A DNA stretch of 64,000 nucleotides from Acidobacteriota bacterium (lineage in GTDB: Bacteria; Acidobacteriota; Aminicenantia; Aminicenantales; Saccharicenantaceae), in NCBI GenBank assembly GCA_033549365.1, contig JAWSUF010000004.1, forward strand, positions 172,058-236,057, in the 5' to 3' direction. The translations under genes and the position numbers were made by a program. This document shows, piece by piece, positions 15,682-51,061 of this stretch (positions are counted from its first letter, which is position 1; the number at the start of each line of letters is the position of its first letter). The notes below the pieces were generated by a model. The model was not told the DNA's origin. It made no database searches and saw only the letters and a program-made list of their open reading frames with translations.

Positions 15682-15683
15682 GG

Positions 15684-20320: not shown

Positions 20321-20354
20321 CGGTCTATCTCCTTCGCTCCGCCGGACGCTCTCC

Positions 20355-21170: not shown

Positions 21171-21180
21171 CGTTAGCTCC

Positions 21181-24747: not shown

Positions 24748-24818
24748 CGCAAACTCCTTTGAGGAGAATTCCCGCGCTCGCTCACAGGAGGGTGCCGGGT
24801 GGACAATCCTAGAAACGC

Positions 24819-24848
24819 GGATAAGGCTTTTATACCGGCATCCGGAAA
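24819..24848 (-). promoter_or_regulatory. Putative sigma70 promoter for rdhAB (TTGACA-18 nt-TATAAA on the minus strand)
   Basis: The minus-strand reading is cgccTTGACAggggtttccggatgccggTATAAAagcc, about 70 nt upstream of the rdhA ATG, inside a lower-GC intergenic region. Confidence 0.4.
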
Positions 24849-24858
24849 CCCCTGTCAA

Positions 24859-34476: not shown

Positions 34477-35226
34477 TCAGCCGATGAGCATCTTCAGCGC
34501 CCCGGCCGCCAGGATCGCGGCCAGGATGATTCTCAGGGTTCGTTCGGGAAGGATTCCGGCTCCGGCATAAGCGCCCGCCGTTCCTCCGGCGATGACGGCC
34601 GCACTGAGAACGAGAACGGTCCGAAGATCGAAATTTCCGCGAAGAATGTGTCCGGTGAGCCCGCTCACGGAATTGACGGCGATGAAGGCACTGGAGAGCG
34701 CAGCCGCTTTCTTCGCGTCGCCCCAGCCCGCAAGCAGAATGAGAGGAGCCAGAAAGACACCCCCGCCGATGCCGACCATTCCCGATAGGAATCCCAGAAG
34801 GAATCCCGCCGGGGCTCCATAAGACCAGAGCGTTTTTTGTGGGACGGGTTCAGATTCGCGCGCCTCGGCCCGGCCGCGCAAAGTCATGGCGGCTGCGGCA
34901 AGGAGCGAGAATCCCAGGAGCCATGTGAAAACAGAGGAAGCGAGAGGGATCAGGCCGCCAAGAAATGCCGCAGGAATGGAGGTGACGGCGAAGGGGATGA
35001 ACATCCGGGCGGAAAAGTGACCGCCTTTTCTGAAAGCCAGGAAACTCAACGAGGCCACGATGATGTTCAGGGCCAGAGCCACGGGAGGAACGGCCGGCGA
35101 GGCGATGCCGAAGAGCGCGAAAAGAGCCAGGTAACCCGAAGCTCCGCCCTGACCGGCGCTGGCGTACAGGGCCGCAATGAGGAAAAAAAACGGGAAGATC
35201 GTCCAGGGCAGTTCAATCCCCGTCAT
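34477..35226 (-). CDS. Sulfite exporter TauE/SafE family membrane protein
   Basis: Trimmed to MTGIELPWTIFPFFFLIAALYASAGQGGASGYLALF... The repeated GxGGG-type TauE motifs are present (GMVGIGGGVFLAPLILLAGW). Confidence 0.75.
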   Translation of the reverse strand: MTGIELPWTIFPFFFLIAALYASAGQGGASGYLALFALFGIASPAVPPVALALNIIVASLSFLAFRKGGHFSARMFIPFAVTSIPAAFLGGLIPLASSVFTWLLGFSLLAAAAMTLRGRAEARESEPVPQKTLWSYGAPAGFLLGFLSGMVGIGGGVFLAPLILLAGWGDAKKAAALSSAFIAVNSVSGLTGHILRGNFDLRTVLVLSAAVIAGGTAGAYAGAGILPERTLRIILAAILAAGALKMLIG

Positions 35227-35376
35227 GTCAGGAAGCCCTTGCCGGATCCCACCGATATCTGGAGATATGTCCCTTGTCGGCATGGGGGGCTGGTTGCAGA
35301 TCGGATTCACCTATCGAATTGAGCATTGGGATACATGCGACTCTGCAGGATGTTGGGTTTAAAGTCGTCAGGTGCG

Positions 35377-37179
35377 TCATGGGTGAATGGGCGTAAACGG
35401 CCAAACCAGCGGAATAACGATCATGGCCGCGATGAAGATGAGGATGTTCAGGGGAGCTCCGACCCGAGTGAAATCAAGGAAGCGATACCCCCCGACGCCG
35501 TAGACGAGAACGTTGGCCTGGTGCCCGACGGGAGTCAGGAACGTCGTCGAACCCCCGATGGCAATGGCCATCAGAAAGGGATGGGGTTGGAGATTCATGC
35601 CGATGGCGATGGAGATCCCGATCGGGGCCAGGAGGACGGCGGCCGCGGCGTTGGACATGACTTCGGTAATCAGGGTCGTGAAAAGAAACAGGCAGGCCAA
35701 AAGCAATAGCGGTCCGGCTCCGCCGGCGAGGTCGACGATGTGCCCCGCCAGCCAGGCGGCGGTTCCGGTGTGGCGCTCGTCCATGGCGATGCCGAGCGGC
35801 ATCATGCCGGCGATGAGAAAGATGACCCGCCATTCGACGCGCTTGTACATGTCCTCGACCTTCACGCAGCCCGTGACGACCATCAGGACAACTCCCAGGA
35901 ATCCGGCGACCGAAATGTGAAGAAGACCGGTCGCAGCCGCGGCGATGATCAGAAGCATGATGCCGCCGGCCAACGGGGCTTTTTCCACCTGGCGCGGTTC
36001 GTGGTCGAGCCGGTTGACGACAAGAAAATCGCGGCTTTCAGCCAGCTTGGTGATGGCCTCCGGAGGGCCCTGGACGAGCATCAAGTCGCCGAGTTGAAGA
36101 GGGACATGTGCGTACCGTGCCGGGATGGCCCGCTCGCGCCGCCTGAGAGCCAGGACAAGAACGCCGAAGCGCTTCCGGATGTCGGCGCCCTTGATGGTCT
36201 GGCCGAGGATGGAGGCGTTGGGCGCGACGGCCACTTCCGCCAACTGCACGCCGCCTCCGGTCAGTCCGGCGTCGGTGAATTTCTTTTCGATATGAATCTC
36301 GAGCTGTTTCGACTCCCGAAGTTCCATGAGGCGGGTGATGTCGCCTTCGACGACGAGCCTGTCTTCGGCCTCCAGAGTCGTGTCGGGTCGGGGGAGAATC
36401 GTCTTCATGACTCCGTCCGTCCGTCGGCTGATGCGCAGGACGGTGAGTCCCATGTCTTTCTGCAGTCTGGACTCAAGAATCGATTTTCCGGCAAGCGACG
36501 ACTTGTCGGAAACCACAACTTCGGTGATGTAATCCTGGAGCTGGTACTGGCGGGTGAAATTGGCGTCTCCCTCGCGGACCGGAATCAGATGGCGTCCGGC
36601 AAGGGCCATGTAGACGACGCCGATACCCAGGACGGCCAGCCCGGTCGGAAGGAAATCGAACATTTTGAACCCTTCGAACCCGGATTCTTCAAGGGCCTGG
36701 GAAACAAGGATGTTGGGCGGTGTGCCGATCAATGTCGTCAGGCCGCCGAGAAGGGATCCGAACGAGAGGGGGATCAGCAGCTTGGAGGCCGGGTACTCGG
36801 CCCGGCGGGAGACGGCGAAAACGGCCGTGAGCAGGATGGCGGTTGCGCCGATATTGTTCATAAAGGCCGACATTGTGCCGACGGTGAACATGACGAGGAC
36901 GGTCAGGACGATGGGATTGCGCCCGCCGATGCGGACGAGGAATTCGACGACGTGGTCGGTGAGCCCGGTCCGGACGATTCCCGAGCTCAGGATGAACATG
37001 GCGATCACGGTGATGACGGCGGGATTGCTGAAGCCCGAGAAGCCTTCCTGGATGGTGACGGTTTTGGTCAGGAGCAGGATGAGCGCGACGCCGATGGCCA
37101 CGATGTCGGGACGGACGACTTCGAGGGCGAACAGGGCAAGCGCCCCCGCGATCAGCGCAAGAATGAAATAATGTTCCAT
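35377..37179 (-). CDS. SLC13/DASS-family anion permease with two central TrkA-C (RCK_C) domains
   Basis: Trimmed to MEHYFILALIAGALALFALEV... (600 aa); the track ORF carries a 195-aa spurious extension. The N- and C-terminal CitT/SLC13 transmembrane halves flank two TrkA-C modules (VVSDKSSLAGKSILESRL..., ADIRKRFGVLVLALRRRE...). Confidence 0.8.
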   Translation of the reverse strand: MEHYFILALIAGALALFALEVVRPDIVAIGVALILLLTKTVTIQEGFSGFSNPAVITVIAMFILSSGIVRTGLTDHVVEFLVRIGGRNPIVLTVLVMFTVGTMSAFMNNIGATAILLTAVFAVSRRAEYPASKLLIPLSFGSLLGGLTTLIGTPPNILVSQALEESGFEGFKMFDFLPTGLAVLGIGVVYMALAGRHLIPVREGDANFTRQYQLQDYITEVVVSDKSSLAGKSILESRLQKDMGLTVLRISRRTDGVMKTILPRPDTTLEAEDRLVVEGDITRLMELRESKQLEIHIEKKFTDAGLTGGGVQLAEVAVAPNASILGQTIKGADIRKRFGVLVLALRRRERAIPARYAHVPLQLGDLMLVQGPPEAITKLAESRDFLVVNRLDHEPRQVEKAPLAGGIMLLIIAAAATGLLHISVAGFLGVVLMVVTGCVKVEDMYKRVEWRVIFLIAGMMPLGIAMDERHTGTAAWLAGHIVDLAGGAGPLLLLACLFLFTTLITEVMSNAAAAVLLAPIGISIAIGMNLQPHPFLMAIAIGGSTTFLTPVGHQANVLVYGVGGYRFLDFTRVGAPLNILIFIAAMIVIPLVWPFTPIHP

Positions 37180-37231
37180 GTCCTTTTCCGGCCCAATATA
37201 TGCGATTTGGATCGAAAAGAAAAGATGGGCC

Positions 37232-39679
37232 TCAGTTCCGGGGATCCGGCCGCCAGAGGATTTTGACGTCTTGGGATGCCCTGTCTCCGCGGGCCAAGAG
37301 GTTTTTGTTCCGCCCGGCTTTTTCCAGATAAAAGTCCGTCCGACCCTCATCCTCGAAAAACCTGAATGCGGACGGGAGGCCCGGCCAGATTTCCAGAACA
37401 AGGGGATCGACCGGACATCGTGGTGCGTTGCCCCGGATCTGCGCCACAGGCAGGATTGCACCCGAGCGGACGAATAAAGGGATCCGGTCGAGAGGCGCTC
37501 GGACGTCGATGACCCGGCCCGGCGGATATTTTTTCCCAGTTCGGAAGTCCATCCAGAATCCCTCTCCGTCCTCCGGATCGTCATGGGTCCCAATCGGAGC
37601 CGATCCCAGCTTCCGGAAGTTCGCTGTGTTCCCTCCGAAAAGGCGGGGGCCTTCGGATCGCCTGAGTTCGGGAAGATAGACGCGCCGTTTGCCGCCGGGT
37701 TCGACCAATGGAGCGACGAGGAGCCATGGACCGAGCATGAACTCGTCCTCCCAGCCATGAACATTGGGGTCGTCGGGAAAGGCCAGCGGCAGAGACCGGA
37801 TCACGGGAAGTCCCGTCCGGGACGCTTCATGGGCCAGGCTCCGGATATAGGGAAGAAGCCGGAGACGCAACCGCACGGCCTTGCGGACGGCTTCCAGAGC
37901 CCGGCCGCCGAAAATCCAGGGTTCCCGCGGTCCGTCGCCGTGCATCCGGCTGTGCGAACAGAGAAGACCGAACTGAGCCCAGCGGACATAGAGTTCGGCG
38001 GACGGCATCCCCCGAAATCCGCCGATGTCATGGCTCCAGAAGGCCAATCCCGACATCCCCGCGCTCAGACCGCCGCGGATTGTCGCAGCCAGACTGTCCC
38101 AATCCGCCGCCGGATCCCCCGACCAGGCCACCGGATAGCGCTGGCTGCCGGCCGTGCCGGCCCGGCTCCAGACAAGCGCATATCCACGCTCGTCTTTCGT
38201 GACTTCGGCAACGGTCTGATTGTAGAGAAGGGGATAAAGGTTGTGCATGACCGCCCCCGTTCGCCCGTCATGAAAGACGGCGTCTTCCGGGATGTCCTCT
38301 CCGAAATCCGTTTTGAAGACGTCGACGCCCTGTCTCAGAAGCGGCCGGTGAAGATCCTTGAACCAGGCCAGGGCTCCGGGATGGGTCAGGTCAACCGCGG
38401 CGACCGGAGCGTTCCAGGATTCCCGACGTTCGGACAGACGCACGTTCCCGTCCGGTCGGGGAGCCAGCGACAGACCGTAGTCGAAGACATAGGGCCGGCC
38501 GTCGGGCCGGCGAACGAAAAATCCGCGCTTCCGGCCGAAGGCGAAGAGATCGCTCTCGACCGAGATGTAAGGATGTTCCCAAAGACAGAGACGCATTCCG
38601 AGGCCGTGGATGCGACGGATCAGACCTTCGGGATCGGGGAATGTCTCGGGATCCCAACGGAAGTCGCAGTATGTCCTCCAGCGCATCCACCAGGGATCGA
38701 TGTGGACGACTGAAGCGGGGACGCGGCGACGCTTGAAGCCTTCGATCAGGGCTTCGACTTCGGCCTGAGTCCGGTAGGTTCCCCCCGAAGATATCCAGAG
38801 CCCGAAGCTCCAGGGGGGCGTCACGGGCGGCCGTCCGGTGAGTTCGGTGTAGCCGTGAAGAAGATCGACCGGTGTCCGGCCGTGGATCACAAAGAGATCG
38901 AGACGGTCATCCTCGACGGCGATATTCAGGCTGCGAATGGATGAGCTTCCGACATCCCAAGTGATCCGGGCGCCGGAGTCGACGAAAAGCCCGTATCCCC
39001 GGGTACTCCACAGGTACGGGATGTTTTTATGGGAACTTTCCGTCGTCGAACCGAGGGCGTCCCGGGTCCAGGAGACGATGACTTGTCCCGACTTGTCCAG
39101 GCGCGTGAATTTCTCTCCCAGGCCGAAGAAGCGTTCCCCCGGCCGGATATGAAATGAGGCCGTGAAGACCCGCCCTCGCCCGCCTGCGATGCCGTCGGCG
39201 ATCCCGAAAGGAAAAGCCAGAGGCCGTCCGAGACCGTCAATGTCTTCCGTGCCGTCCTCAAGGATCATGCGGCCGCGGCCGTCCGTGATAGTCAGGCGAA
39301 AGGGGTTTTTACGGATGACAAGCCCGGTCCGGGGGCCGGAAATATGAATTCTATCCTTCGTTTCACGGACCGAAAGCGGATGCGGAGAGCCTGCGGATGG
39401 AATCATCATTCCGGTCGGAAGACTCGGCCTCGCGCCGGCCGGGCGCATGGATATTTTCATGACCGAGGGGCGGAGGGTCTCAACTTCGAAAACAGCGGTT
39501 TTCCCGGTTTCCGCCAAGAGGTCGAGCCGGACCCGCGTCTTTCCGTCTCCGGCGAAAGACCATCGTTTCCATGAGCGGAAGGCGTCGAGTCCGGGCGGAG
39601 CTCCGGGGGCGGCGGAGCCGTAATCCGGGATCGATTTTTTACGGTTCGAGGATCGGTTCACAGACCGTCGTCGACTCAT
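37232..39679 (-). CDS. Glycoside hydrolase family 31 (alpha-glucosidase/alpha-xylosidase, YicI-like)
   Basis: 815 aa. It has an N-terminal beta-sandwich followed by the GH31 catalytic region (GVDVFKTDFGEDIP, WSGDPAADWDSL, HDIGGF). Confidence 0.85.
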   Translation of the reverse strand: MSRRRSVNRSSNRKKSIPDYGSAAPGAPPGLDAFRSWKRWSFAGDGKTRVRLDLLAETGKTAVFEVETLRPSVMKISMRPAGARPSLPTGMMIPSAGSPHPLSVRETKDRIHISGPRTGLVIRKNPFRLTITDGRGRMILEDGTEDIDGLGRPLAFPFGIADGIAGGRGRVFTASFHIRPGERFFGLGEKFTRLDKSGQVIVSWTRDALGSTTESSHKNIPYLWSTRGYGLFVDSGARITWDVGSSSIRSLNIAVEDDRLDLFVIHGRTPVDLLHGYTELTGRPPVTPPWSFGLWISSGGTYRTQAEVEALIEGFKRRRVPASVVHIDPWWMRWRTYCDFRWDPETFPDPEGLIRRIHGLGMRLCLWEHPYISVESDLFAFGRKRGFFVRRPDGRPYVFDYGLSLAPRPDGNVRLSERRESWNAPVAAVDLTHPGALAWFKDLHRPLLRQGVDVFKTDFGEDIPEDAVFHDGRTGAVMHNLYPLLYNQTVAEVTKDERGYALVWSRAGTAGSQRYPVAWSGDPAADWDSLAATIRGGLSAGMSGLAFWSHDIGGFRGMPSAELYVRWAQFGLLCSHSRMHGDGPREPWIFGGRALEAVRKAVRLRLRLLPYIRSLAHEASRTGLPVIRSLPLAFPDDPNVHGWEDEFMLGPWLLVAPLVEPGGKRRVYLPELRRSEGPRLFGGNTANFRKLGSAPIGTHDDPEDGEGFWMDFRTGKKYPPGRVIDVRAPLDRIPLFVRSGAILPVAQIRGNAPRCPVDPLVLEIWPGLPSAFRFFEDEGRTDFYLEKAGRNKNLLARGDRASQDVKILWRPDPRN

Positions 39680-40824
39680 CCCAGGAGCTCCGCGAGGGCT
39701 TCGATGTCGGTCTCGGGCCAGTCGTCGCCGATCAGGCCGTTCGTTGCGTCGACATGAATGAAAAGTCCGCGGTTTGTTGTCCTGGCCGCAAGAATCCGCG
39801 AGACGAAATCGAACATTCCTTTGAAAACGAAATCGCGGTTGAGTCCGACCCGGCAGGCCAGGACGACGCGTCCGCCGAACCGATCGGAGACCGCCCCGAA
39901 ATCCGTTTCGGAGGCTCCGAATTCAAGACCGCGCAGCCCCGCGAACTTTTCGAGGCTCGGAAAAAGATGAGCCCAGTTTCCGCAGGAATGGAGATAGACG
40001 CCGCCGAAAGTCTCCGCGATTTTTTCGAGATAGGGCAGGCTGAATTCATCGTGAAGCGCGGGGGACAGCATCACCCCGGAGTCGTTGGAAATCGAGAGGG
40101 CCGTTCCATCGGGAAGCCAGGGCTGGAATCCGCCGGGCACGAACTCCGCGCCCATTTCCACGACCAGGCGGCGCTGTGCCCGGGCGAAATCGATCAGAAG
40201 GTCCGTGGTCAGGCCCAGAAGGTGATGCATCTCCCGGGGATGGGTCAGAAGAGCCTCGAAGAACCGGGTATGACCAACGATAAGCGCGGCGTTGTCCACG
40301 GGACCCTGGAGATCGGCCAACCGGATGGGGAAGCGACCCGACGTCCGCTCGATAAAGACCCGCGAGGTATCCAGGATGCGGCCAAGGACACCGGCCTGCA
40401 ACCCCGGTGGCTCGATGTCCATGATCCGGCTCAGGTCGTCGAGGGGCAGGGGACGAACCGACGGAAAATCGGTCTCGTGCCAGACCACGTCGCAGCCGAA
40501 AGCCGAGGGCAGGGCGACGACGCCGAGCGTTGGACAGAGGGCGGGGACAAGGTCGCCGGGGAAGGCCGACTGCCCTTCGATCTCCTCGATCTGGGCGGCC
40601 AGGAACTTTTCGGGATCGGTCAGCCGGTTGAGGACGGTGTCCCGCCCCTCCGTCGAAAAGAGGGCGCTTCGCACGGGCCGGCCCTTTTTCAATCTCTCTC
40701 CGGTGTATCCGATGAGGAAGCCCGGACGTTCCTCGTTTTCGAGGCGCCACAGCCGCTCCAGGAAGCGGCGGGTCTCACCGATGCCGGAACCCGATGACCC
40801 GGCCTGCTCAGTCGTATCGTCCAT
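39676..40824 (-). CDS. URO-D/MtaA-like TIM-barrel protein (methylcobamide methyltransferase family, HxCG motif), paralogue 1
   Basis: 382 aa with a His-x-Cys-Gly motif (VYLHSCGNWAHLF), as in the zinc-binding corrinoid methyltransferases of the uroporphyrinogen-decarboxylase fold. It has no HemE N-terminal PVWxMRQAGR motif, so it is not a true uroporphyrinogen decarboxylase. Confidence 0.55.
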   Translation of the reverse strand: MDDTTEQAGSSGSGIGETRRFLERLWRLENEERPGFLIGYTGERLKKGRPVRSALFSTEGRDTVLNRLTDPEKFLAAQIEEIEGQSAFPGDLVPALCPTLGVVALPSAFGCDVVWHETDFPSVRPLPLDDLSRIMDIEPPGLQAGVLGRILDTSRVFIERTSGRFPIRLADLQGPVDNAALIVGHTRFFEALLTHPREMHHLLGLTTDLLIDFARAQRRLVVEMGAEFVPGGFQPWLPDGTALSISNDSGVMLSPALHDEFSLPYLEKIAETFGGVYLHSCGNWAHLFPSLEKFAGLRGLEFGASETDFGAVSDRFGGRVVLACRVGLNRDFVFKGMFDFVSRILAARTTNRGLFIHVDATNGLIGDDWPETDIEALAELLG

Positions 40825-41962
40825 AGCTTTCGGCCGCTTTCATCATCGCATTGATATTCTCGATCGGCGAGCCGGGCGCAACGTTGTTGCCGTCCTGGAG
40901 GACGAACCCGCCGCCCGGAGCCAGTTTTTCGATGACCTTGCGGGACGCCTCCATCACTTCCGCGGGCGTTCCCGAGAGGATGATCCGGGGATCGACATTG
41001 CCGTAGAGAACGATCCGTCCGCTCATGACCTCGCGGATCCTGTCCAGGTCGACGGCCCAGCCGAATCCCTGGAACTCGTGGATGTCCAAACTGTCGCGGA
41101 AGATCTCCAGGAGATGGTCGGACTTGCCGCACATGTGAAAGAGGGCGTTCCCGCGGAAATGAGAACGGATGCGGCAATCCGCGGGAAGGACCAGATCCTT
41201 GAACATGCCCGCCGACAGCGAGACGGCAAGATCGTCCGACCAGGCGATATCTCGGGGTTCGGGAAGACCCTCGAGGTCGCAGGCGAAGTCGAGCCAGGCG
41301 AGCATCTTGTCGATGATGATCCGCAGGAGTTCGCGGACGAAATCCGGGCGCTCGGCGCAGGCCAGGAAGAGTTCGGTTGCGCCCATGAGGTCACCGGCGA
41401 TGCCGAACGGGCCGTCCGATGTCCGGGTCAGGGACGGGCGTGCCCCGGGATAAAACACGAGACCGCCGAGAAAGCGAACGGGATATTTTTCAGCAACCCG
41501 AATCATCCCGTCCCGGAATTCCACCTGGCGGGCATTGAGACCGGAGCCGATGAAGTCCATGGCTTCCAGCCGAGTGAGGTCGGTGTCGTCCTGAACCCAG
41601 TGCGAAGCCACCCAGGGGATGTCGTTTTCTGGGAATTCGATCCGGCAGCCCAGGCTTCCCGCCTCGAACGAGTTCTGAAAGTCGGACCAGGCTCCGACCC
41701 AGGGACCGGTAATAACATGGGCGTCCGTCCGAATATTTTCCAAATGCCATTTCTGGGCCCGGATTTGGGTCCGGAGCATGGTTTCGGGATCGGCGTAGTA
41801 ATCCCGAAAGGACGTTCCGGTCTTGGGGATGAGGAAGCGATGGGCCAGAGCGGGAATGACGGGAACCCGGTCGGGCCGGCCGAATCGCCGGGCTTCCGCA
41901 ACGCGGGCGCGCCGGGCTTCGATCTCCTCGACAGGGATCCCGATTTCGATGATGTCGCTCAT
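40808..41962 (-). CDS. URO-D/MtaA-like TIM-barrel protein, paralogue 2
   Basis: 384 aa in the same family (ALFHMCGKSDHLLEIF HxCG motif; GGGFVLQDGNNVAPGSP C-terminal region). It overlaps paralogue 1 by 17 nt. Confidence 0.55.
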   Translation of the reverse strand: MSDIIEIGIPVEEIEARRARVAEARRFGRPDRVPVIPALAHRFLIPKTGTSFRDYYADPETMLRTQIRAQKWHLENIRTDAHVITGPWVGAWSDFQNSFEAGSLGCRIEFPENDIPWVASHWVQDDTDLTRLEAMDFIGSGLNARQVEFRDGMIRVAEKYPVRFLGGLVFYPGARPSLTRTSDGPFGIAGDLMGATELFLACAERPDFVRELLRIIIDKMLAWLDFACDLEGLPEPRDIAWSDDLAVSLSAGMFKDLVLPADCRIRSHFRGNALFHMCGKSDHLLEIFRDSLDIHEFQGFGWAVDLDRIREVMSGRIVLYGNVDPRIILSGTPAEVMEASRKVIEKLAPGGGFVLQDGNNVAPGSPIENINAMMKAAESYGRYD

Positions 41963-42002: not shown

Positions 42003-43070
42003 TCAGGTCTTGAGAGGCAGCGCGACGAAGAATTCGGCGTATCGACCGGGCTCGGATTCGGCCCAGATCCGGCCGCCGTGCTTCTCGACGATCTGGCGGC
42101 AGATGTAGAGACCGAGGCCCGATCCCTTGACGCCTTCCGTCCCCGGCTGCCGCAACCGCTCGAAGCGCTTGAAGAGCCGGTCGCGGATGTCTTCGGCCGA
42201 TATGCCGACCCCCTCGTTGTGGACCGAAAAGATCATCTCGCCGCCCTCCCGGCGCATTCGCAGCCTGACCGGCGTTCCTTCCCGGCCGTACTTGACGGCG
42301 TTGACGACCAGGTTCCGGACGACGATCTCGAGCAGGCGGGGATCTCCGTGAACGACGATGTCCTTGGTCCACTCCGTTTGGATGTCCATGGCTTTGGTGT
42401 TGTCCTTGACGCCGGGCGTATCCAGGGCCTCGTTGACGACCGCCGCGGCGAAGGGAACCTCTTCCTTGAAGGCCCCCAGCTTGTCGAGTTCCATCCGCGA
42501 CAGGTCGATGTAACTCCGGATGATGTCTTCGAGATATTCGCAGTTGCGGAGAATGGACTCCACGATTCTCTGCTGGCCGGGTTCAAGGCGGCCGAAATAA
42601 CCCCGGTGAAGCGTCGAGGCCGTCGTGTGGACGGCGGAGACGGGGCTTTTAAGCTCATGAGACACGATGGCCATGAGATCGAGCATCTTCGCCGGAGCGA
42701 TGTCCTTTTTGGACTGGACGGCGTTTCGGACGACGCTCCGGATCTCTTCGGGCGTAAAAGGCTTGGGAATGTAGTCGAAGGCGCCGTTTTTGAGCGCCTC
42801 CCGGGCCGTTTCGACGTTGGCGTATCCCGTGAAAATCACGACGATGATGTCGGGTTTTTCCTGACGGAGAGTCTTGAGGACGTCCATGCCGCCGAGTCCC
42901 GGCATCTTGAGGTCGGTGACGACGACGTCGTAGTCTTTGGCCCGGGCCATTTCGAGACCCTCCTCGCCGGAGAGCGCCGTCTCGACCTCCCATTCGTCAC
43001 CGGTGAAGATCCGCCGGCAGCTCCGGAGGACGATGTCCTCGTCATCGATGAAGAGAAGCTTGGCGCTCAT
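42003..43070 (-). CDS. Hybrid response regulator/histidine kinase (REC-HisKA-HATPase_c, with no sensor or output domain)
   Basis: Trimmed to [17 protein letters not shown]... (AGGAGG ribosome-binding site), whose ATG overlaps the HK stop as ATGA. The REC domain is DVVVTDLKMPGLGG, the H-box is MAIVSHELKSPVSAV, and the ATPase G-boxes are GSGLGLYICRQIVEKHGG. Confidence 0.8.
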   Translation of the reverse strand: MSAKLLFIDDEDIVLRSCRRIFTGDEWEVETALSGEEGLEMARAKDYDVVVTDLKMPGLGGMDVLKTLRQEKPDIIVVIFTGYANVETAREALKNGAFDYIPKPFTPEEIRSVVRNAVQSKKDIAPAKMLDLMAIVSHELKSPVSAVHTTASTLHRGYFGRLEPGQQRIVESILRNCEYLEDIIRSYIDLSRMELDKLGAFKEEVPFAAAVVNEALDTPGVKDNTKAMDIQTEWTKDIVVHGDPRLLEIVVRNLVVNAVKYGREGTPVRLRMRREGGEMIFSVHNEGVGISAEDIRDRLFKRFERLRQPGTEGVKGSGLGLYICRQIVEKHGGRIWAESEPGRYAEFFVALPLKT

Positions 43071-45037
43071 GATTCCTCCTTGGCGCTCTCCCAGGGGTTC
43101 GGATCGGGACCGGCTTCCCTGCGGGGAAGCCGGATGGTGAATTCCGTACCCTCGCCGACCTTGCTGCGAACGGAGATCGACCCGTTGTGGCGCTGGATGA
43201 CGCCGTAGGTCACGGCCAGTCCGAGCCCCGTCCCCTTGCCCTTGTCCTTGGTGGTGAAAAACGGCTCGAAGAGTTTTTTCATGTTCTCTTCGCTGATGCC
43301 GACGCCCGTATCGGCGAACTTGATGACGATCTCGTCTCCCGAGGGATCCCTGTGGGTGGTAATCATCAGGCGGCCGCCGTCGGGCATGGCATCGGCGGCG
43401 TTCACGGCCAAATTGTTGATGACCGACCGGATCTGCCCGGTGTCGACGCTGATCAGGGGCAGCGACCGGTCGTAGTCCCTGACGATGGTGATATTCTGAA
43501 AGCTGACGTTTTTTTCGATAATGCGCAGGGAGGCGTCGATCAGGGCGTTGATGTCGACGTCGATTTTTTCCGGCCGGCTGTCCCTGGCGAAATCCAGAAG
43601 GCCGCGGACGATGGTCCGGCAGCGCAGCGTCTCGTCCTGAATGACCTTGAGGTCGTCCTCGTGAGGCGTGCCTCTGAGCTCTTCGAGGAGAAGGCAGCTG
43701 TAAGTCAAGACTCCCGTCAGGGGATTGTTGATCTCGTGGGCGATCCCCGATGCCAGGCGGCCGATGGAGGCCAGCTTCTCGGACTTGAGGATCGATGTTT
43801 CCGCCAGATTCTTGAGCCAACGGTCGCGTTCCTCGATGGCCTCGGTCATCTTGTTGAAGGCCGTGCCGATGTTCCGGATGTCCTGGTCGTCTCCGGGCCG
43901 GATCTCGATTTTTGCGTAATTGCCCCGGGCGATCTCGGCCGAGGCGGTGATGATGCGTTTGACCGGGCGCGTGGCGGCGCCGATGAGATAGACGGCCACG
44001 GCCAGAGCCAGGATCGTCGTCAGGGCGATGACCTGAAGAAACGAGACGGTTGTTTCGCGGAGGATGGCGTTGAATTTATCCTCGAGAATTCCGGCGTAGA
44101 GGATTCCGATTCTCCGGTCGTGAATGTCGTAGATGGGGGTGTATCCCGAAAGATACCAGGCATCGACGACGAAGGCTTTCCCGACGAACGTCCGCCCTTC
44201 CTCGAAGACTTCCCGAAAGACCTCCTCCGAGACCTGGGTGCCGATGGCTCTCCGGCCGTCGCGGTCCTTGACGTTCGTGGCCACGCGGACGTCGCCCAGA
44301 AAAATCGTCGTCGTCCCGACTTCTTTGTCGTTGAATTCCTCGTCCCGGAAGACGAGGTTTTTGAACCGGTCGATGAACGTCTCGTTGTTGTTGAGAACGA
44401 TCGCCGCGTAGAGGATGCCGATCATCCTGCGGCCGGACATGACGGGCGCGACCAGCTTGATGACCAGGGCCCGGTCCTCGACCAGGACGTCCCGCGGCTG
44501 CGCATGGGGTGTCGGGATCACAGGGATCAGGGTTCGGGCGGCCAGCATCGGACCTTCCCGCCGGATGTCCTCGTTTTCGAGGACACCCGTTCCGAAAACC
44601 GGTTCCCGGTTTTCGAGCACCCACTTGACGTAGCTGTAATGGGCGATGCTGTCGCCGTATTCCTCGAAGTTATTGGCCCGGACAAGCACCTGGCCCCCGG
44701 CGTCGACGAGGTTGACGATGTCGAATTCGAATTCCTTCTTGATCTGTTCGAGTTTGGTGAAGAGGAATTCGCGGTCCCCCCTCGCCACCGCCTGGACGAT
44801 TTCAGAAGTCTTGGACAGATAGTTCACGATGCGGGCGCGCTTGGCGATTTCCTCCCGGTAAAGGAATTCCGTCGCGGCCAGGCTGCTTTCAACCGAATCC
44901 TGGGCCTCGCGGATGACGTTCCGATCGATGATCCGGACGCCGACGAGAATGGACAGGGCGCCCGTCAGAAGAACGATGGACAGAAGCCCGACGATCAGCT
45001 TGAGGCGGATGTCGGACCGGTTGAGAAACTTGATCAA
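43067..45037 (-). CDS. Sensor histidine kinase with a ~270-aa extracytoplasmic dCache-like domain between two transmembrane helices, plus HAMP, HisKA and HATPase_c
   Basis: 656 aa. TM1 is residues about 11-33 and TM2 about 305-327. The H-box is [16 protein letters not shown] and the ATPase motifs are [18 protein letters not shown]. Confidence 0.85.
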
Positions 45038-45459: not shown

Positions 45460-45990
45460 TTAGTCCTTGAGAAGCTGGTAAATGACGTTCCGGTCCTCCC
45501 AGGCCTTGCTGCGCTCGTAGGCGTCGATGGGGAATTCGACCTGCTTGAGTTCGACGGGCGCCGCCTTCTTGTCGACCAGGCCGAGCGCCAGGGCCACGCC
45601 GTAAATGATGGCCTCAGGCCGGGGAGGGCAACCGGGGACATAGAAGTCGACGGGCACGGCCTGGGCCCCGCCGCCGGTGACATTGTACGTGTCGAACCAG
45701 CAACCGCCTCCGACCGCGCAGGAGCCGATGCCGAAGACGATTTTCGGGGCGGGGATGGCCGCATGAGCCCTGCGGACCAGGGGCAGCGTCGGACGCGTGA
45801 CCGAACCGGACAGCAGCATGACGTCGGCGTGCCGCGGCGAGCCGACGAGCCGGATCCCGAAGCGCTCGACGTCGTAGTAGGGCGTCAGGACATTCAGGAT
45901 TTCAATGTCGCAGCCGTTGCAGGCGCCGCTGTTGCAGTGATAGACCCAGAGGGATTTGGGAAAGAATTTTTTCGATAACTTGGCCAGCAT
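45460..45990 (-). CDS. Group 4 [NiFe] hydrogenase small subunit (HycG/NuoB family)
   Basis: 176 aa. The proximal-cluster Cys motifs are HCNSGACNGCD, GIGSCAVGGGCW and VPGCPPRPE. Confidence 0.85.
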   Translation of the reverse strand: MLAKLSKKFFPKSLWVYHCNSGACNGCDIEILNVLTPYYDVERFGIRLVGSPRHADVMLLSGSVTRPTLPLVRRAHAAIPAPKIVFGIGSCAVGGGCWFDTYNVTGGGAQAVPVDFYVPGCPPRPEAIIYGVALALGLVDKKAAPVELKQVEFPIDAYERSKAWEDRNVIYQLLKD

Positions 45991-45991
45991 G

Positions 45992-46537
45992 TCATTCTCC
46001 GAGCTTATGGGGACGTTGGAAGGATTCGGTCTCGCGAAGGATCCGGGGCTCGAACTGTTCCGATGTCCGGCGCAGGACGGTCCGGGCCTGGAGGCTGTCG
46101 TAGCGGAATCCCTTGAGGTCGAGCCGGTCGATGAGATTCGTGATCTCCATATCGTAACACCGGCCGCATCTCCGGCAGGTCAGCATGAAGAGTTCGAGGT
46201 TCTGGGTGATGTCCTCCCGGTCATTCGTGGCCAGCTCGAATTGTTCGGTCATGGCGATGGCGTCTTCGGGACAGACATCGGCGCAGCGCCCGCAGTACAT
46301 GCAGCGCGATCCGTCATAGAGGAGAACGCGGATGTCCTGACAGATGTCGCGGACCATGATCGTTCGGGCCGGGCAGTGGTCGGCGCAGCCGCCGCAGCCG
46401 ACACATTTCGTATGGTCCCAGGCCGGGGCACCCCGGAAGTCCTCCGGGGCGGGACGGGGTTCGAAGGGATATTTCAAGGTAACGACGCCCGGCTTGAGAA
46501 CCAGGAGGACCTGTTTGATCTTGCTCATAAGCCACAT
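45992..46537 (-). CDS. 2x[4Fe-4S] ferredoxin-like hydrogenase subunit (HycF/NuoI family)
   Basis: Two CxxCxxCxxxCP motifs are present (CVGCGGCADHCP, CMYCGRCADVCP), and the protein is about 180 aa. Confidence 0.8.
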   Translation of the reverse strand: MWLMSKIKQVLLVLKPGVVTLKYPFEPRPAPEDFRGAPAWDHTKCVGCGGCADHCPARTIMVRDICQDIRVLLYDGSRCMYCGRCADVCPEDAIAMTEQFELATNDREDITQNLELFMLTCRRCGRCYDMEITNLIDRLDLKGFRYDSLQARTVLRRTSEQFEPRILRETESFQRPHKLGE

Positions 46538-46557
46538 GATCTTCTCCTTTGCCTCGG

Positions 46558-47466
46558 CTAGAAGCCCTTGACGGCCAGACCGGCGGCGACGAGGGCGACG
46601 GCGATCAATCCGGCGTAAAATTTTACCGCCTGGTCGATGCGGAATCTGGGGTTCGTCGCGCCGATGATTGCGATCAGGACAAAGACGACGAGGATTCCCA
46701 GGAGCTGAATGAGAATGTCGGCCGGCCCGAAACCCGTCGCGGGAAGCGGCACGAAGACGCTCACGAAAAGGAAGGCGTAAAACATCTGCTTCATCATCAT
46801 GGCGTACTTGAACAGACCGTAGAAAGCCCCGCTGTACTCGATGAAGGGTCCTTCCAGAATTTCCACCTCCGCCTCGGCGATGTCGAAGGGCTGGCGGCCC
46901 ACGAAGGCCTGGAGAGCCAGGAGGTAGACGGACAGCATGAGAACGGCGGAGATCCCGTAGCCGGCGCTTCCCAGCGGGGCCATGGCGGCGCTCAGCTTGA
47001 GGCCTCCGGATTTGACCGCCCCCAGAATGAGCGTCATGGCCAGCACCGGTTCGATCATGATCATAGTCGCCATCTCCCGGCTGGCCCCGATCAGAGCGAA
47101 GGTGTTGCGGCTGGCCAGGGCGCCGAGCAGAACACAGACCCCGCCCAGGACGAGCATGTAGATGAGCGAGATAATGTCGGTGCGCTGCGTCAGGAAGTTG
47201 GCCTTGCCTCCGAGGGGGATCATGGCGGCGACGGTCAGAACGGCCGCGAAGGCGCCCAGAGGAGCCAGCGAAAAAGCCCAGTTCCGGGCTGAGTTCATGC
47301 GCTCCTTGCCGAGAAGCTTGATGAGGTCGAAATAGGGCTGCAGGAGCGGAGGGCCCTGCCGCGACTGGATTTTGGCCGTGATTTTCCGGGTCACTCCCTG
47401 AAACAGCGGCGCGAACAGGAGGAACACGGCGACATTGACGAAGACATAGACGATGTCCATGATCAT
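46558..47466 (-). CDS. Hydrogenase membrane subunit (HycD/NuoH family)
   Basis: 302 aa polytopic protein with NuoH-like conserved regions (LFAPLFQGVTRKITAKIQSRQGPP; EGPFIEYSG). Confidence 0.85.
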   Translation of the reverse strand: MIMDIVYVFVNVAVFLLFAPLFQGVTRKITAKIQSRQGPPLLQPYFDLIKLLGKERMNSARNWAFSLAPLGAFAAVLTVAAMIPLGGKANFLTQRTDIISLIYMLVLGGVCVLLGALASRNTFALIGASREMATMIMIEPVLAMTLILGAVKSGGLKLSAAMAPLGSAGYGISAVLMLSVYLLALQAFVGRQPFDIAEAEVEILEGPFIEYSGAFYGLFKYAMMMKQMFYAFLFVSVFVPLPATGFGPADILIQLLGILVVFVLIAIIGATNPRFRIDQAVKFYAGLIAVALVAAGLAVKGF

Positions 47467-49148
47467 CTCCTCCGGCTCCGCGGCCGTCTCGCGAGTTTTT
47501 CGAGGCCGCTTGGGTCCAGAATTGTCCGGGACTTCTTCTTCATGTCGATGACGACGACGCGATCGGTGCAGGAAAAACAGGGATCGATGCTGCCCAGGAT
47601 AATGGGAAAATCGGCGAACTGGTTGTTGAGCAGCATGTCGGGGACGCCCTGAAGATTGGCGTAGGTCGGCGCCCGGACCTTCCAGCGCTCGGGCCGGTTC
47701 TCCTCGCCCGTGATAACGTAGTGGACGGATTCGCCGCGGGGCGCCTCGACGGTCGACATGCCGTGCCGAAGAGGAGGGAGGATTTCGGAGAATTCGGTGA
47801 GCAGAGGGCCGTCGTTCGGCATGGTGTCCAGGGCCTGCCGGATGATCTTCACGGATTCGAAGACTTCGAGGATCCGGACGACGACCGTGCCCCAGACATC
47901 GCCGCTGTCCATGACGGGAACAGCGAATTCGACCGCGTCATAAGCCGCGTAGGGATGGTCGCGGCGGGCGTCGATGTCCACGCCGCGGGCCCGGGCGACC
48001 GGCCCGATCAGACTCCAGCGGCGGGTCTGCTCTTCCGTAAGAAACCCGACGCCCTTGGTTCTCTTGTGAATGGACGTGTCTTTCAGAACCGCCGCCTTGA
48101 CTTCGAGGACCTCCTTTTCGACGGTTTCGAGGGTTTCGCGGAGTTCTCTTCCGATCTCCGGGGTGATATCCCGGCGGACGCCGCCGATCACGATCATGCC
48201 GTAGGTTTTGCGGTTGCCGGTGATGCGCTCCGAAAGCCACATGATGCGCTCCCGGATCCGCCAGGCCTGCATGAACAGCGTGTCGAAACCGATGAGATGG
48301 CCGGCGACGCCGAGCCAGAGGAGGTGGGAATGCAGCCGCTCGATCTCCAGCAGGATGGTCCGGATGAATTCGGCCCGCCGGGAAATCTTGAGTCCGGCGG
48401 CTTCCTCGACGGCCTGGGCGTAGGCCGCGGCATGGACGGAACCGCAAATGCCGCAGATGCGTTCGGCCACAAAGGGAATTTCGTTGTAACTGACCTGCGT
48501 CTGGCAGAGTTTTTCGATGCCGCGGTGAGTCATGAATCCGCGATAGTCGCAGCCCTTGATGGTTTCGCCGTCGACGTAAACCGCAAAATGGGCCGGTTCA
48601 TGAAGACTCGCGTGAAAGGGCCCCACGGGAACGACCGTCGTTCCGGGTGGAGCTTCGTCCAGTTGGTAGGCGACGTCCTCGGCTGCGGGCGGGACCAGAT
48701 TGTGGGGCACGTCCTTGCGCAGCGGATAAATGCCCTCCGGCCAGTCGTCGGCCAGGATCAGGCGTTTCGGTTTCGGATGGCCTTTGAAAGTCATGCCGAG
48801 AAGGTCGGCGCATTCCCGCTCCGTCCAGCCCGCATTGGGGATGTCCGGGGTGATGGAGTCGAACACGGGATCGTTCGCGGGGGCCGATGTCCGGAGGGCC
48901 GCCAGGATTCCGTCCCGGTCGAAAGCGAAAGTGTGGATCAGGGGGAGCGTACCGTCGCGTTCGATGCTGTCCGCGCCGAACCCGACCATGTATCTTGCTC
49001 CAAGTCCGATGAGCCGCGCCGCGGCGGCCCGGAGGTGCTCTCTCGGGATGTCGAGATAGACGCGGTGGGGAAGAGGAATGTCGACGGTCAGTCCGGACGT
49101 GCCGAACTCCGTCTCCAGCGTTTTTTTCAAGGTGTCCGGCGTCAGCAT
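47463..49148 (-). CDS. Group 4 [NiFe] hydrogenase large subunit fused to a NuoC-like N-terminal domain (HycE-like)
   Basis: 561 aa. The N-terminal Ni-Fe ligand motif is RICGICGSVH and the C-terminal one is DPCFSCTDR. The roughly 170-aa N-terminal domain is NuoC-like, as in HycE. Confidence 0.9.
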   Translation of the reverse strand: MLTPDTLKKTLETEFGTSGLTVDIPLPHRVYLDIPREHLRAAAARLIGLGARYMVGFGADSIERDGTLPLIHTFAFDRDGILAALRTSAPANDPVFDSITPDIPNAGWTERECADLLGMTFKGHPKPKRLILADDWPEGIYPLRKDVPHNLVPPAAEDVAYQLDEAPPGTTVVPVGPFHASLHEPAHFAVYVDGETIKGCDYRGFMTHRGIEKLCQTQVSYNEIPFVAERICGICGSVHAAAYAQAVEEAAGLKISRRAEFIRTILLEIERLHSHLLWLGVAGHLIGFDTLFMQAWRIRERIMWLSERITGNRKTYGMIVIGGVRRDITPEIGRELRETLETVEKEVLEVKAAVLKDTSIHKRTKGVGFLTEEQTRRWSLIGPVARARGVDIDARRDHPYAAYDAVEFAVPVMDSGDVWGTVVVRILEVFESVKIIRQALDTMPNDGPLLTEFSEILPPLRHGMSTVEAPRGESVHYVITGEENRPERWKVRAPTYANLQGVPDMLLNNQFADFPIILGSIDPCFSCTDRVVVIDMKKKSRTILDPSGLEKLARRPRSRRR

Positions 49149-51061
49149 GATGGTTCTCCTCGATGGTCGACCGGAAGAGTTTCATGATCCTGCGGTTCGC
49201 CTCCGGTCCAGCGGAACAGCTTCTTGAAGGCTGCGAACATGCTCTTGTCCACGTAGCGATTGATGTTTTCAGGTTCCTTGTAGCCGCAGAGCCATGTCTG
49301 AGCCGGAACATCCTTGGCTCCCCCCGCACGTTTCAGGAGGAAGGCCAGAATCAGGGCACCAAGAAAGACGGCGAAGAGAATGAGAGGGCTCAGAGCGGCC
49401 GCGATTTCCCCAGGGGGCAGGGAGGGCGGATATCTCAACCGGATGCCCGAGAGAGAAAGACGGAGAATGCCGTCCCCGGCCATGACGGATAAGGAGTTTT
49501 CGGCGATGAATCCCTTGGATGCGGCGAAGACCCGGCCGAACAGGCCGTAAAAGAGAAGAGGAAACAGTCCCTGAATCACGCAGATGGCGGCGAGCAGGAT
49601 TTTGGGAATCAGCATGGCCGCCGGGACCTCCCGGACCGTCTTTTTGACCGTCCATTCCGTCCCCGAGGATGTGAAGGCCATGCCGAAGAATTTGACATAA
49701 CAGGCCAGGGTCACCGCACTCGTAAAGAGGGCGACAATCCCGAAAAACAGCAGAGCCGCGTCGCTCCGGCCGGCCAGAAGGGAACTTGAGATGATCGACC
49801 ATTTGCTGGCGAAACCGCTTGTGGGCGGCATGCCCGAGATTGAGAGGGAGGCGATCCCGGCCAGGACGGCGGTGAGAGGCATGAGCGTGATCAGACCGCC
49901 GAGCCGGTTGAGATCTTTCGTTCCCGTGGCATAAAGGAGGCTTCCGCCCGTCATGAACAGAAGGCCCTTGAACACGGCGTGATTGACGATGTGATACATC
50001 GCGCCGACCGCGACGATGACGGCCAAATATTGTGCCGCCGCGTCGGTCGAAGGAGCAAGAACAAGCACGAGGCCCGAGGCCAGGACGATGTAGCCGATCT
50101 GGCCGATGGAGCTGAAGGCCAGCAGCCTCTTGGCGTCGCTCTGTTTGACGGATTGGACGGTGCCGATGAAAAGGGTGATCGTGCCGAGGGCGGCGATGCC
50201 GATTCCCCAGGCGCGGATGTCGAAATTCTCTTCCGCCTTCGGGGCCATGAAAAGAAACGTCCGCATCAGGCCATAGACGCCCGTCTTCAGCATCACGCCG
50301 CTCAGGAGCGCGCTCACCGGAGACGGAGCCACGGAATGGGCCCCGGGAAGCCAGAGCCGGCCAAGGGGCCAAACGCCCGCTTTGATGCCGAAGCCGACAA
50401 GCAGAAAGGCGGCGAAGGCGGCCAGCGATCCCGGAGACGTCCCGCCCATTTTGGCCATGATGGCGTGAGTGTCCTCCCCGAACCGGTAGCCGTTGACGAA
50501 CCAGGCCCCGGCGACGACGAGAAGCCAGGAGATTTCCATGAGGACGAGGTAAGTCACGGCGATCTTGACGTTTTCTTTTTTTCGGTGTTCGTAGCGGATC
50601 AGGAAGAAAGAGGCCAGGGTCATGATCTGCCAGGCGATCGTGAACCCCGTGGAGAGATCGTCCACCGTCACCAGGGCGGCCATGCCCAGAATAAAGAGCG
50701 GAAAGGCGGCATAATAGCCGCCCGCCCCGTAGTCTTCGTAGTGTTCCATGTAGCGGATCGAATAGAGGGCGCTCAGGGCCGCCATGACACCGATGACGAT
50801 CAGGAAGAGTCCGGAAAAGCCGTCGATGAGGAAGGGCAGCGCCAGCGGTCCGAGACGGACGGTTTCGATACCGGCCGAGGCTCCGCCGACGGCTTTCAAC
50901 CCCGCCGTCACGATCAGGCCGCCGGAGGCGGCCGCGGCCAGGAAATTCACGATTCCGGCCAGGCGTTTGTTTTTTGCGAGAAACGGAGCGATCCCGGCCG
51001 AAACGGCCAGGATGCCGAAGGCGGCGAAGAGATAGGGCGTGAGGGTTGCATTCGGGCTCAT
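49142..51061 (-). CDS. NuoL/MnhA-type antiporter-like membrane subunit (HyfB/HycC-like)
   Basis: Trimmed to MSPNATLTPYLFAAFGILAV... (639 aa); the track ORF has a 227-aa Arg/Pro-rich spurious extension. The sequence shows proton-pumping antiporter-subunit topology and motifs. Confidence 0.8.
   Translation of the reverse strand: MSPNATLTPYLFAAFGILAVSAGIAPFLAKNKRLAGIVNFLAAAASGGLIVTAGLKAVGGASAGIETVRLGPLALPFLIDGFSGLFLIVIGVMAALSALYSIRYMEHYEDYGAGGYYAAFPLFILGMAALVTVDDLSTGFTIAWQIMTLASFFLIRYEHRKKENVKIAVTYLVLMEISWLLVVAGAWFVNGYRFGEDTHAIMAKMGGTSPGSLAAFAAFLLVGFGIKAGVWPLGRLWLPGAHSVAPSPVSALLSGVMLKTGVYGLMRTFLFMAPKAEENFDIRAWGIGIAALGTITLFIGTVQSVKQSDAKRLLAFSSIGQIGYIVLASGLVLVLAPSTDAAAQYLAVIVAVGAMYHIVNHAVFKGLLFMTGGSLLYATGTKDLNRLGGLITLMPLTAVLAGIASLSISGMPPTSGFASKWSIISSSLLAGRSDAALLFFGIVALFTSAVTLACYVKFFGMAFTSSGTEWTVKKTVREVPAAMLIPKILLAAICVIQGLFPLLFYGLFGRVFAASKGFIAENSLSVMAGDGILRLSLSGIRLRYPPSLPPGEIAAALSPLILFAVFLGALILAFLLKRAGGAKDVPAQTWLCGYKEPENINRYVDKSMFAAFKKLFRWTGGEPQDHETLPVDHRGEPSC

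Follow-up and report, generated by a model that had tools for sequence, protein, structure and literature searches.

A conserved URO-D/GH31 gene cluster as a putative methyl-sugar:corrinoid methyltransferase system in Aminicenantes and other bacterial phyla

The DNA analysed here, 64,000 nucleotides of contig JAWSUF010000004.1 from an Acidobacteriota bacterium of the Aminicenantales (hereafter the window; G+C ~60%), contains two overlapping genes of the uroporphyrinogen decarboxylase (URO-D) superfamily, U1 and U2, which directly precede a gene for a family GH31 glycosidase. This arrangement is conserved across phyla, and orthologous clusters of Chloroflexota, Calditrichota and Ignavibacteria/Bacteroidota contain, or are closed by, genes for corrinoid proteins and their activators. 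The putative function of the cluster, to which we assign a probability of roughly one half, is that of a methyl-sugar:corrinoid methyltransferase system working together with an alpha-glycosidase; as such, it would do without oxygen what the P450 sugar demethylases do with it. The more specific proposal, that the URO-D pair with its variant His-Cys-Asp-type metal site transfers the methyl group of a sugar methyl ether to a corrinoid and is thus the first oxygen-independent carbohydrate O-demethylase, is put forward tentatively, as possible but somewhat against the odds.

Conserved gene order and corrinoid genes in orthologous clusters

The three core genes of the window are, in order of transcription:

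40808-41962, minus strand: U1, URO-D superfamily, 384 aa (PF01208, E 6e-29), candidate methyl-substrate:corrinoid methyltransferase
39676-40824, minus strand: U2, second URO-D-superfamily protein, 382 aa (PF01208, E 7.5e-20), candidate partner of U1 or candidate second methyltransferase
37232-39679, minus strand: GH31 glycosidase, 815 aa, YicI-like (Pfam GH31 N, TIM and C domains)

U1 and U2 overlap by 17 bp, and the stop codon of U2 and the start codon of the GH31 gene share an ATGA (4 bp). The initial annotation had placed the URO-D genes downstream of the glycosidase and of a permease gene that follows it; the order is the reverse, the URO-D genes being 5' in the direction of transcription.

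To survey relatives, one genome per species was scanned, giving 80 loci with U1 orthologs (61-71% identity), which together with five loci obtained by exact-protein match and the window amount, once redundancy is removed, to 83 loci, each taken with ~10 kb flanks. These were annotated by tblastn and by clustering of open reading frames (ORFs), with Pfam run on representatives, an annotation that is not exhaustive. U1 orthologs are 61-73% identical across phyla and occur in Aminicenantes, Chloroflexota, Calditrichota, Ignavibacteria/Bacteroidota, Planctomycetota and Verrucomicrobiota, and the order U1-U2-GH31 is conserved in Aminicenantes, some Chloroflexota, Calditrichota and Ignavibacteria/Bacteroidota. 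U2 lies directly 3' of U1 in 40 of the 76 loci with enough downstream sequence (10/11 in Aminicenantes), and the pairing with GH31 that had been proposed from the window alone proves to be conserved in relatives, since the glycosidase gene follows in 8/9 Aminicenantes loci and in all four metagenome-assembled genomes (MAGs) labelled 'Eubacteriales'. Recurrence of this kind, with reading frames that overlap or nearly abut, indicates that the arrangement is not due to chance, and mere adjacency was rejected as an explanation.

The wider composition of the 83 loci is that of a sugar-catabolic cluster, in which the U1-U2-GH31 core is usually accompanied by a D-lyxose/mannose isomerase, by kinases and transporters for sugars and by one or two additional URO-D paralogs. 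U2 is present in 42 of them, GH31 in 32, and two further URO-D paralogs, here Ua and U338, in 34 and 24, respectively. A GH38 gene occurs in 24 loci; a D-lyxose/mannose isomerase, a sugar ATP-binding cassette (ABC) solute-binding protein and a GntR-LacI regulator in 23 each; ABC permease components in 32; a PfkB kinase in 13; an SSF transporter in eight; and an FGGY kinase in four. RbsD, mutarotase and GH2 genes are also among the neighbours in relatives. The isomerase, a cupin, is a true relative of D-lyxose/mannose isomerase (254 bits to the Thermofilum structure, PDB 7nzo) and stands 5' of U1 in 12/13 Aminicenantes loci, the sole exception being the window.

In the fullest operons, a corrinoid protein of methyltransferase type and a MetH-type activation domain are encoded between the sugar kinases and the URO-D genes. 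Operon L077 encodes in succession a ribokinase-like kinase, a XylB-like xylulokinase (355 bits), a corrinoid protein, a Met_synt_B12 activation domain, the lyxose isomerase, Ua, U1, U2 and GH31. Its corrinoid protein passes the Pfam B12-binding and B12-binding_2 models and carries the DxHxxG motif as GDLHDIGKN, while its scores for the MtgC-type (187 bits, cut-off 370) and pyl_corrinoid (166 bits, cut-off 215) families are both below threshold. In four further loci (L065, L074, L080 and L084) a corrinoid protein and a Met_synt_B12-like (MetH-type) activation domain are encoded just 5' of the URO-D genes. The Anaerolineae locus L005 is ordered differently, with sugar ABC genes, Ua, U1 and U2 followed by genes for a corrinoid protein, RACo, S-methyl_trans and DUF1638. 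A search with the L005 corrinoid protein returned orthologs on five further contigs matched by length to U1-bearing ones, and in the three that were fetched (L086, L087 and L088) the corrinoid protein gene lies ~9-10 kb 3' of U1 and closes the same sugar cluster. In L086 it is followed, after an MtaB-like gene, by RACo, S-methyl_trans and DUF1638, none of which is present in L087; two more cases at the ends of Chloroflexota clusters rest on partial matches or less direct evidence. RACo is present in L005, L086 and L046, and S-methyl_trans was seen only in the Chloroflexota modules. No pterin-binding gene was found among the Pfam-labelled genes or scanned representatives of the loci, within an annotation that is not exhaustive, and one of the URO-D paralogs may serve as the second methyltransferase (MT2), which takes the methyl group from the corrinoid.

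The MtaB-like gene (PF12176), for a methanol:corrinoid methyltransferase, is complete in L086 (10661-12055) and cut by the contig end in L088 (10661-11167). It was seen 3' of the corrinoid protein gene only in these two Aggregatilineales clusters and is absent from L005 and L046.

Folds and motifs of U1, U2 and the glycosidase

Both proteins exceed the PF01208 gathering cut-off (23.9 bits), U1 with 101.6 and U2 with 71.7 bits. They are indeed overlapping paralogs of the URO-D fold, as first described, and distant ones (21% identity, hhalign probability 97.8%). The HemE signature is absent, also in line with the first description, U1 scoring 31.5 bits against the cut-off of 302.95 for the HemE equivalog TIGR01464 and U2 giving no match. 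In the AlphaFold2 model of U1, which has a moderate mean predicted local distance difference test score (pLDDT 74.5), the top Foldseek matches are MtaA (4ay8/4ay7) and then HemE, followed by MetE; the model of U2 is good (pLDDT 88.6, predicted template-modelling score 0.89) and matches HemE (6w2o), MtaA (4ay7/8) and then MetE. The top matches of both proteins to MtaA and HemE have E values of 1e-11 to 1e-14 and TM-scores of 0.60-0.69.

The His-x-Cys-Gly motif ascribed to both proteins is confirmed. It reads HMCG in U1 (residues 276-279) and HSCG in U2 (residues 279-282), its H, C and G do not vary among some 30 orthologs of either protein, and it aligns with HiCG of MtaA (4ay7), which supplies the His and Cys zinc ligands of that enzyme. 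U1 further carries QDGNN at residues 356-360, and in U2 both C324 and D359 are invariant among orthologs; judged from topology only, these two sit where the next two strands end, which are the positions of further ligands in MetE and MtaA. A library-wide search with the U1 profile retrieved 1226 cluster representatives at E <= 1e-10, and this wider clade mostly carries H-[ML]-C-G ... D-G-x-N. The four paralog families U1, U2, Ua and U338 score alike on NCBIfam models, which therefore do not assign any of them as MT2 or as the substrate:corrinoid methyltransferase (MT1).

The most conserved stretch of U1 lies elsewhere, at residues 84-117 (window 41612-41713; ITGxWVGAWTDFQNxFEAGSLG...DDIPW). 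It is nearly invariant across phyla and is also the sole long segment with pLDDT <50; it may be a lid or interface that becomes ordered only with a partner or ligand.

Among the proteins retrieved by the U1 profile, the nearest multidomain relatives are fusions of a URO-D domain to B12-binding_2 and B12-binding domains. One of them, P0433 (615 aa), scores 150 bits to the U1 profile, shares 29% identity with U1 over the full length and stands far nearer to it than to U2, Ua or U338. In another, P0466 (750 aa), the fusion is preceded by an N-terminal stretch that by eye resembles part of a pterin-binding domain, and in which Pfam reported no domain. Such fusions are an argument for the presence of MT1 enzymes in the U1 clade. 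P0433 and P0466 are both without His-x-Cys-Gly and have YHNDS instead.

The glycosidase, described at the outset as a GH31 alpha-glucosidase/xylosidase, has the three GH31 domains and resembles YicI, an alpha-xylosidase. Its best PDB match is E. coli YicI (434 bits over the catalytic domain), and its score for the NCBIfam alpha-xylosidase model PRK10658, 556.8 bits, is just below the equivalog cut-off of 606. Aligned to YicI, the protein keeps the catalytic motifs KTDFGE (nucleophile) and WSGD (acid/base, WxGD in YicI-type enzymes). It differs in the xylose-specific pocket, where YicI DCFWM is replaced by DPWWM, and D[PT]WWM is found in 25/25 U1-linked orthologs with a readable motif, that is, C307-F308 of YicI corresponds to P/T-W throughout. 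No obvious signal peptide was seen by eye.

Methyl transfer from a sugar and its alternatives

A cytoplasmic pathway for an O-methylated, alpha-linked sugar, with U1 and U2 as its methyltransferase core, could run as follows. The glycoside would be imported, in the window maybe by the SLC13 permease encoded next to the glycosidase and in relatives by ABC or SSF transporters, and the YicI-like GH31 enzyme would, by homology, cut the alpha-glycosidic bond. U1 would then bind the methyl sugar, possibly with U2 as a heteromeric partner or as a second specificity, and a metal held at the His-x-Cys(-Asp) site would polarise the ether oxygen, so that a corrinoid protein in the Co(I) state could take over the methyl group; the gene for this protein would have to lie elsewhere in the genome than in the window. 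Tetrahydrofolate or homocysteine would then accept the methyl group of CH3-Co(III), and in relatives the freed sugar would be converted by the D-lyxose/mannose isomerase before a kinase of the xylulokinase-like or ribokinase-like kind phosphorylates it. What the data establish are the folds, the motifs, the conserved gene order, the corrinoid genes of orthologous clusters and the fused relatives; methyl transfer itself, its direction, the sugar, the metal and the partner proteins are inferred from them. Methyl transfer had been suggested from the window alone; this idea gains support from the corrinoid proteins and activators of orthologous clusters and from the URO-D-corrinoid fusions of the U1 clade, whereas the window itself has no corrinoid gene and its permease is not a conserved part of the cluster.

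Candidate substrates are glycosides of O-methyl-xylose, O-methyl-lyxose or O-methyl-mannose. An attractive candidate among them is the 2-O-methyl-xylose-alpha-1,3-fucose unit of rhamnogalacturonan-II (RG-II), whose 2-O-Me-Xyl-alpha-1,3-Fuc bond is reportedly the one RG-II linkage left uncleaved by B. thetaiotaomicron. This bacterium cleaves all RG-II linkages but one and releases 2-O-methyl-xylose only as the disaccharide 2-O-Me-Xyl-alpha-1,3-Fuc (PMC10154630; bioRxiv 10.64898/2026.03.13.711244).

A number of observations weigh against methyl transfer from a sugar to a corrinoid. First, as the initial annotation had stated, no corrinoid protein or methyltransferase partner lies nearby: tblastn with 29 reference proteins over the whole 64 kb found no corrinoid protein, activator/RACo or MT2, and a Pfam scan of 44 window ORFs found no corrinoid protein, RACo or methyltransferase partner. 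The same holds within 10 kb in 17/17 Aminicenantes-type loci, and within the fetched flanks only 8/83 loci have a corrinoid protein, or ~12/83 once partial matches at locus ends and less direct cases are added. Rfam found no cobalamin riboswitch in the window or in seven related loci, only one tRNA, and the corrinoid module of the Chloroflexota could be merely a split methionine synthase encoded nearby. Second, the assignment of U1 and U2 to the MtaA/MtbA/CmuA type holds for the fold and for His-x-Cys-Gly and fails at the family cut-offs and at the third ligand. Against TIGR01463 and PRK06252 (MtaA/CmuA; cut-offs 235 and 244) U1 scores 63.3 and 73.2 bits and U2 45.1 and 62.3, and over all MtaA/CmuA-type NCBIfam models the two reach 45-73 bits against cut-offs of 235-400. 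The third zinc ligand of MtaA, the Cys of apGCGiaP, is replaced in U1 by the aligned QDGNNvaP (G-N-N), and U2 has DATNG (D-A-T-N) at a position taken as equivalent on strand topology, without an alignment to MtaA. Third, the hints to the sugar conflict, in that the GH31 enzyme is xylosidase-like, the isomerase points to lyxose or mannose, the kinases resemble xylulokinase and ribokinase, and Chloroflexota loci have GH38. Finally, aliphatic methyl ethers give up their methyl group far less readily than aryl ethers do, and we know of no enzyme for methyl transfer from aliphatic (sugar) methyl ethers.

Three other explanations deserve consideration, and with HemE-like genes and chance adjacency excluded their combined weight is not far short of an even chance. 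U1 and U2 could be of the MT2 type and, like MtaA, pass the methyl group of a methyl-corrinoid to a thiol or folate, the corrinoid protein being loaded otherwise, for example with methanol via MtaB; the link to sugars would then be indirect, through methanol released from methylated or methyl-esterified glycans. His-x-Cys-Gly is the hallmark of MtaA and MtbA, MtaA is the top Foldseek and PDB-profile match of U1, and MtaB stands beside the corrinoid protein in two Aggregatilineales clusters. However, MtaB is limited to that one sublineage (L086 and L088), and no esterase was identified in the clusters. The corrinoid operons of Calditrichota and Ignavibacteria contain no other MT1 candidate, which leaves the loading of the corrinoid there to at least one URO-D paralog, and the closest fused relatives of U1 look like MT1-corrinoid fusions, one of them apparently with a pterin-binding stretch. 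We consider it unlikely that U1 and U2 work in this way.

To a similarly low degree, the pair could be independent of corrinoids. U1 and U2 might form a double barrel like that of MetE and transfer a methyl group directly to a zinc-bound thiol, or they might catalyse another reaction, for instance one that turns a uronic acid into a pentose by decarboxylation, as from mannuronate or guluronate to D-lyxose. Such a pair would account for the lack of a corrinoid gene near any Aminicenantes-type locus, and MetE, a tandem of two URO-D-like barrels, is among the Foldseek matches; tight coupling of U1 and U2 would suit a heteromeric pair. Also in its favour are the anion-type permease of the window and the adjacent D-lyxose isomerase in 12/13 Aminicenantes loci, D-lyxose being rare unless made in situ. 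The decarboxylation variant, however, would require a cofactor-free decarboxylation of a uronic acid without an electron sink, against established chemistry. Moreover, His-x-Cys-Gly is retained in U1 as well as in U2, in contrast to MetE with its degenerate N-terminal barrel, and the corrinoid and activation genes of orthologous operons, as well as the URO-D-corrinoid fusions, would be left unexplained.

The conserved neighbours, namely a sugar isomerase, kinases, mutarotase, GH31, GH38 and GH2 enzymes and sugar transporters, also bear on whether U1 and U2 could demethylate the methoxylated aromatic aglycone of a glycoside from which GH31 just removes the sugar. They speak against this, and no aromatic-catabolism genes were seen in the annotated loci; alpha-xylosides of phenolics are, besides, uncommon. 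Even though aryl methyl ethers are the substrates of every characterised ether-cleaving methyltransferase I (MTI) in the UroD superfamily (PMC13222342), aryl O-demethylation is in our view a slim prospect. Least credible of all is that U1 and U2 are HemE-like housekeeping genes or chance neighbours of GH31, which has on its side only the name 'uroporphyrinogen decarboxylase' in Pfam and in the source annotations and was rejected on the TIGR01464 scores, the recurrent cluster context across phyla and the absence of haem genes among the Pfam-scanned window ORFs, where the neighbours are kinases, GH31 and permeases.

The proposed methyl-sugar:corrinoid system can be compared with several known ones. 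MtaA, MtbA and CmuA, the first of them part of the methanol:coenzyme M system MtaABC, share the fold and have His-x-Cys-Gly at the same strand end. No protein matches U1 better than MtaA in structure and profile searches, and relatives' clusters contain a corrinoid protein of the cognate type and, in two cases, MtaB. U1 and U2 differ from these enzymes in their low family scores, the replaced third Cys, their sugar-catabolic clusters and the presence of up to four paralogs per locus, and coenzyme M biology is not expected in these bacteria. Known MTI enzymes, some of them zinc-containing or zinc-requiring, are found in the UroD superfamily (PMC13222342). MtvABC, Odm, Vdm, MtoB and CdmBCA, in which the MTI belongs to this superfamily, consist of several components, among them a corrinoid protein and a reductive activator. 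Their substrates are aryl methyl ethers or methyl halides and not carbohydrates, the MT2 of the known O-demethylases is a pterin-binding protein, of which none was found in U1 clusters, and the match of U1 to CdmB is only 32 bits. The corrinoid protein, RACo, S-methyl_trans and DUF1638 module is a known set for split methionine synthesis and reactivation (PMC5764234), and a corrinoid protein common to a split methionine synthase and a substrate demethylase has been shown genetically (PMC12478193). The MtgBCD(E)/split methionine synthase system likewise combines a corrinoid protein with RamA/RACo, DUF1638 and a homocysteine-binding module, as at the ends of Chloroflexota clusters, but its substrate methyltransferase is of the MttB family (glycine betaine), not URO-D, and it has no glycosidase context. 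A P450 enzyme that O-demethylates 6-O-methyl-D-galactose has the same role as is proposed here, the removal of a blocking methyl ether from a sugar, yet it is oxygen-dependent and haem-based, releases formaldehyde, belongs to an unrelated family and is found in aerobic marine bacteria (PMC6292453).

In the literature searched we found no description of such a URO-D/GH31 or methylated-sugar/corrinoid system, and carbohydrate demethylation was described only for P450 monooxygenases (PMC6292453). Neither the enzyme superfamily nor the logic of a multi-component system is new, whereas the setting among carbohydrate genes, the architecture with four paralogs and the variant metal motif are without a described precedent. 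Methyl ethers block sugar catabolism, and methylated sugars occur in pectin, in algal and microbial glycans and in marine dissolved organic matter; for their handling by anaerobes the cluster supplies concrete genes and operons to test. If the methyl-sugar proposal is correct, corrinoid methyltransferase chemistry would extend from aryl to alkyl methyl ethers, glycan degradation would be linked to one-carbon and methionine metabolism, and a large unannotated clade of the 'uroporphyrinogen decarboxylase family' would gain a function. The system would then occur widely among fermentative Aminicenantes, Anaerolineae, Calditrichia and Ignavibacteria and, with its dedicated alpha-glycosidase, could explain the fate of methylated sugars in anoxic habitats, for example of the 2-O-methyl-xylose of RG-II.

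Transport, regulation and surrounding genes

Other genes of the window run in the same direction on both sides of the core:

43067-45037, minus strand: Cache-domain histidine kinase (Pfam sCache_3_3/HAMP/HisKA/HATPase_c), first in transcription order
about 43100-42003, minus strand: receiver-histidine-kinase hybrid (Pfam Response_reg/HisKA/HATPase_c), directly 5' of U1
35377-37179, minus strand, 37179 being the likely start: SLC13/DASS-type (CitMHS) permease with two central TrkA-C domains (Pfam)
34477-35310, minus strand: TauE/SafE-family anion exporter (PF01925, E 5e-33), last co-directional gene

From the hybrid kinase through U1, U2, GH31 and the permease to TauE the spacings are 40, -17, -4, 52 and 66 bp. 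The four genes from U1 to the permease are co-directional and lie at the coordinates first reported. The permease possibly is co-transcribed with the URO-D and GH31 genes; a promoter and terminator scan gave no usable operon boundaries. The two kinases 5' of U1 are possible regulators, and their membership in the cluster is not established: they are not conserved in relatives, which mostly have GntR-LacI regulators or none. Membership of the TauE/SafE gene is doubtful, as no homolog of it occurs in any of the related loci examined.

The two TrkA-C domains of the permease are borne out by Pfam, which gives CitMHS (305.8 bits) and Na_sulph_symp, both above their cut-offs, together with TrkA_C twice; against TIGR00785 it scores 151.8 bits, the cut-off being 198.6. 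As a conserved partner it did not hold up, since an SLC13 permease adjoins the URO-D genes in only 2/83 loci, the window and L060, the others having ABC or SSF transporters. In L060, from an unrelated MAG, the SLC13-type permease (6955-8619) is 36% identical to that of the window and lies directly 5' of Ua-U1-U2, from which the link to an anion-type permease may not be pure coincidence.

Several observations concern the clusters of relatives. A DUF455 (ferritin-like) gene accompanies the URO-D and ABC genes in 23 Chloroflexota-type loci, sometimes in two copies (for example L045 12858-14114 and L086 1413-2654). A NosD-like beta-helix protein is encoded in 17 loci and a DUF6259 glycoside hydrolase-like protein in 15 (Chloroflexota). 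A resemblance of the beta-helix protein to the GH141 fucosidase that releases 2-O-Me-Xyl-Fuc was considered, and this was dropped as unsupported, there being no PDB sequence match; several ORF clusters near Aminicenantes loci were set aside as spurious or uninformative.

Within the window, the product of a minus-strand gene at 23404-24858 (484 aa) combines a double 4Fe-4S domain with a reductive dehalogenase subunit domain (PF13486, 65 bits); as RdhA-like proteins belong to a corrinoid-dependent enzyme family, this suggests that the organism uses cobamides. The run of minus-strand carbohydrate genes at 3938-23373 includes genes for PGI-like, HAD, transketolase, G6PD and 6PGD-like proteins and a ROK kinase, as well as an 884-aa GH63/MGH1-like hydrolase, an SDR protein and a glycogen debranching enzyme, so that the pentose-phosphate route, into which the proposed pathway would lead, is encoded nearby. 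At 12459-13424, minus strand, a protein with radical SAM and DUF3641 domains adjoins a VTT-domain membrane protein; its architecture presumably resembles that of arsenosugar-type radical SAM enzymes. Directly 5' of the kinases, at 45460-51742 on the minus strand, lies a membrane-bound, complex-I-like [NiFe] hydrogenase-type module that comprises Oxidored_q6, a 2x4Fe-4S protein, NADHdh, a fused 30kDa/49kDa/NiFeSe subunit and a Proton_antipo_M subunit.

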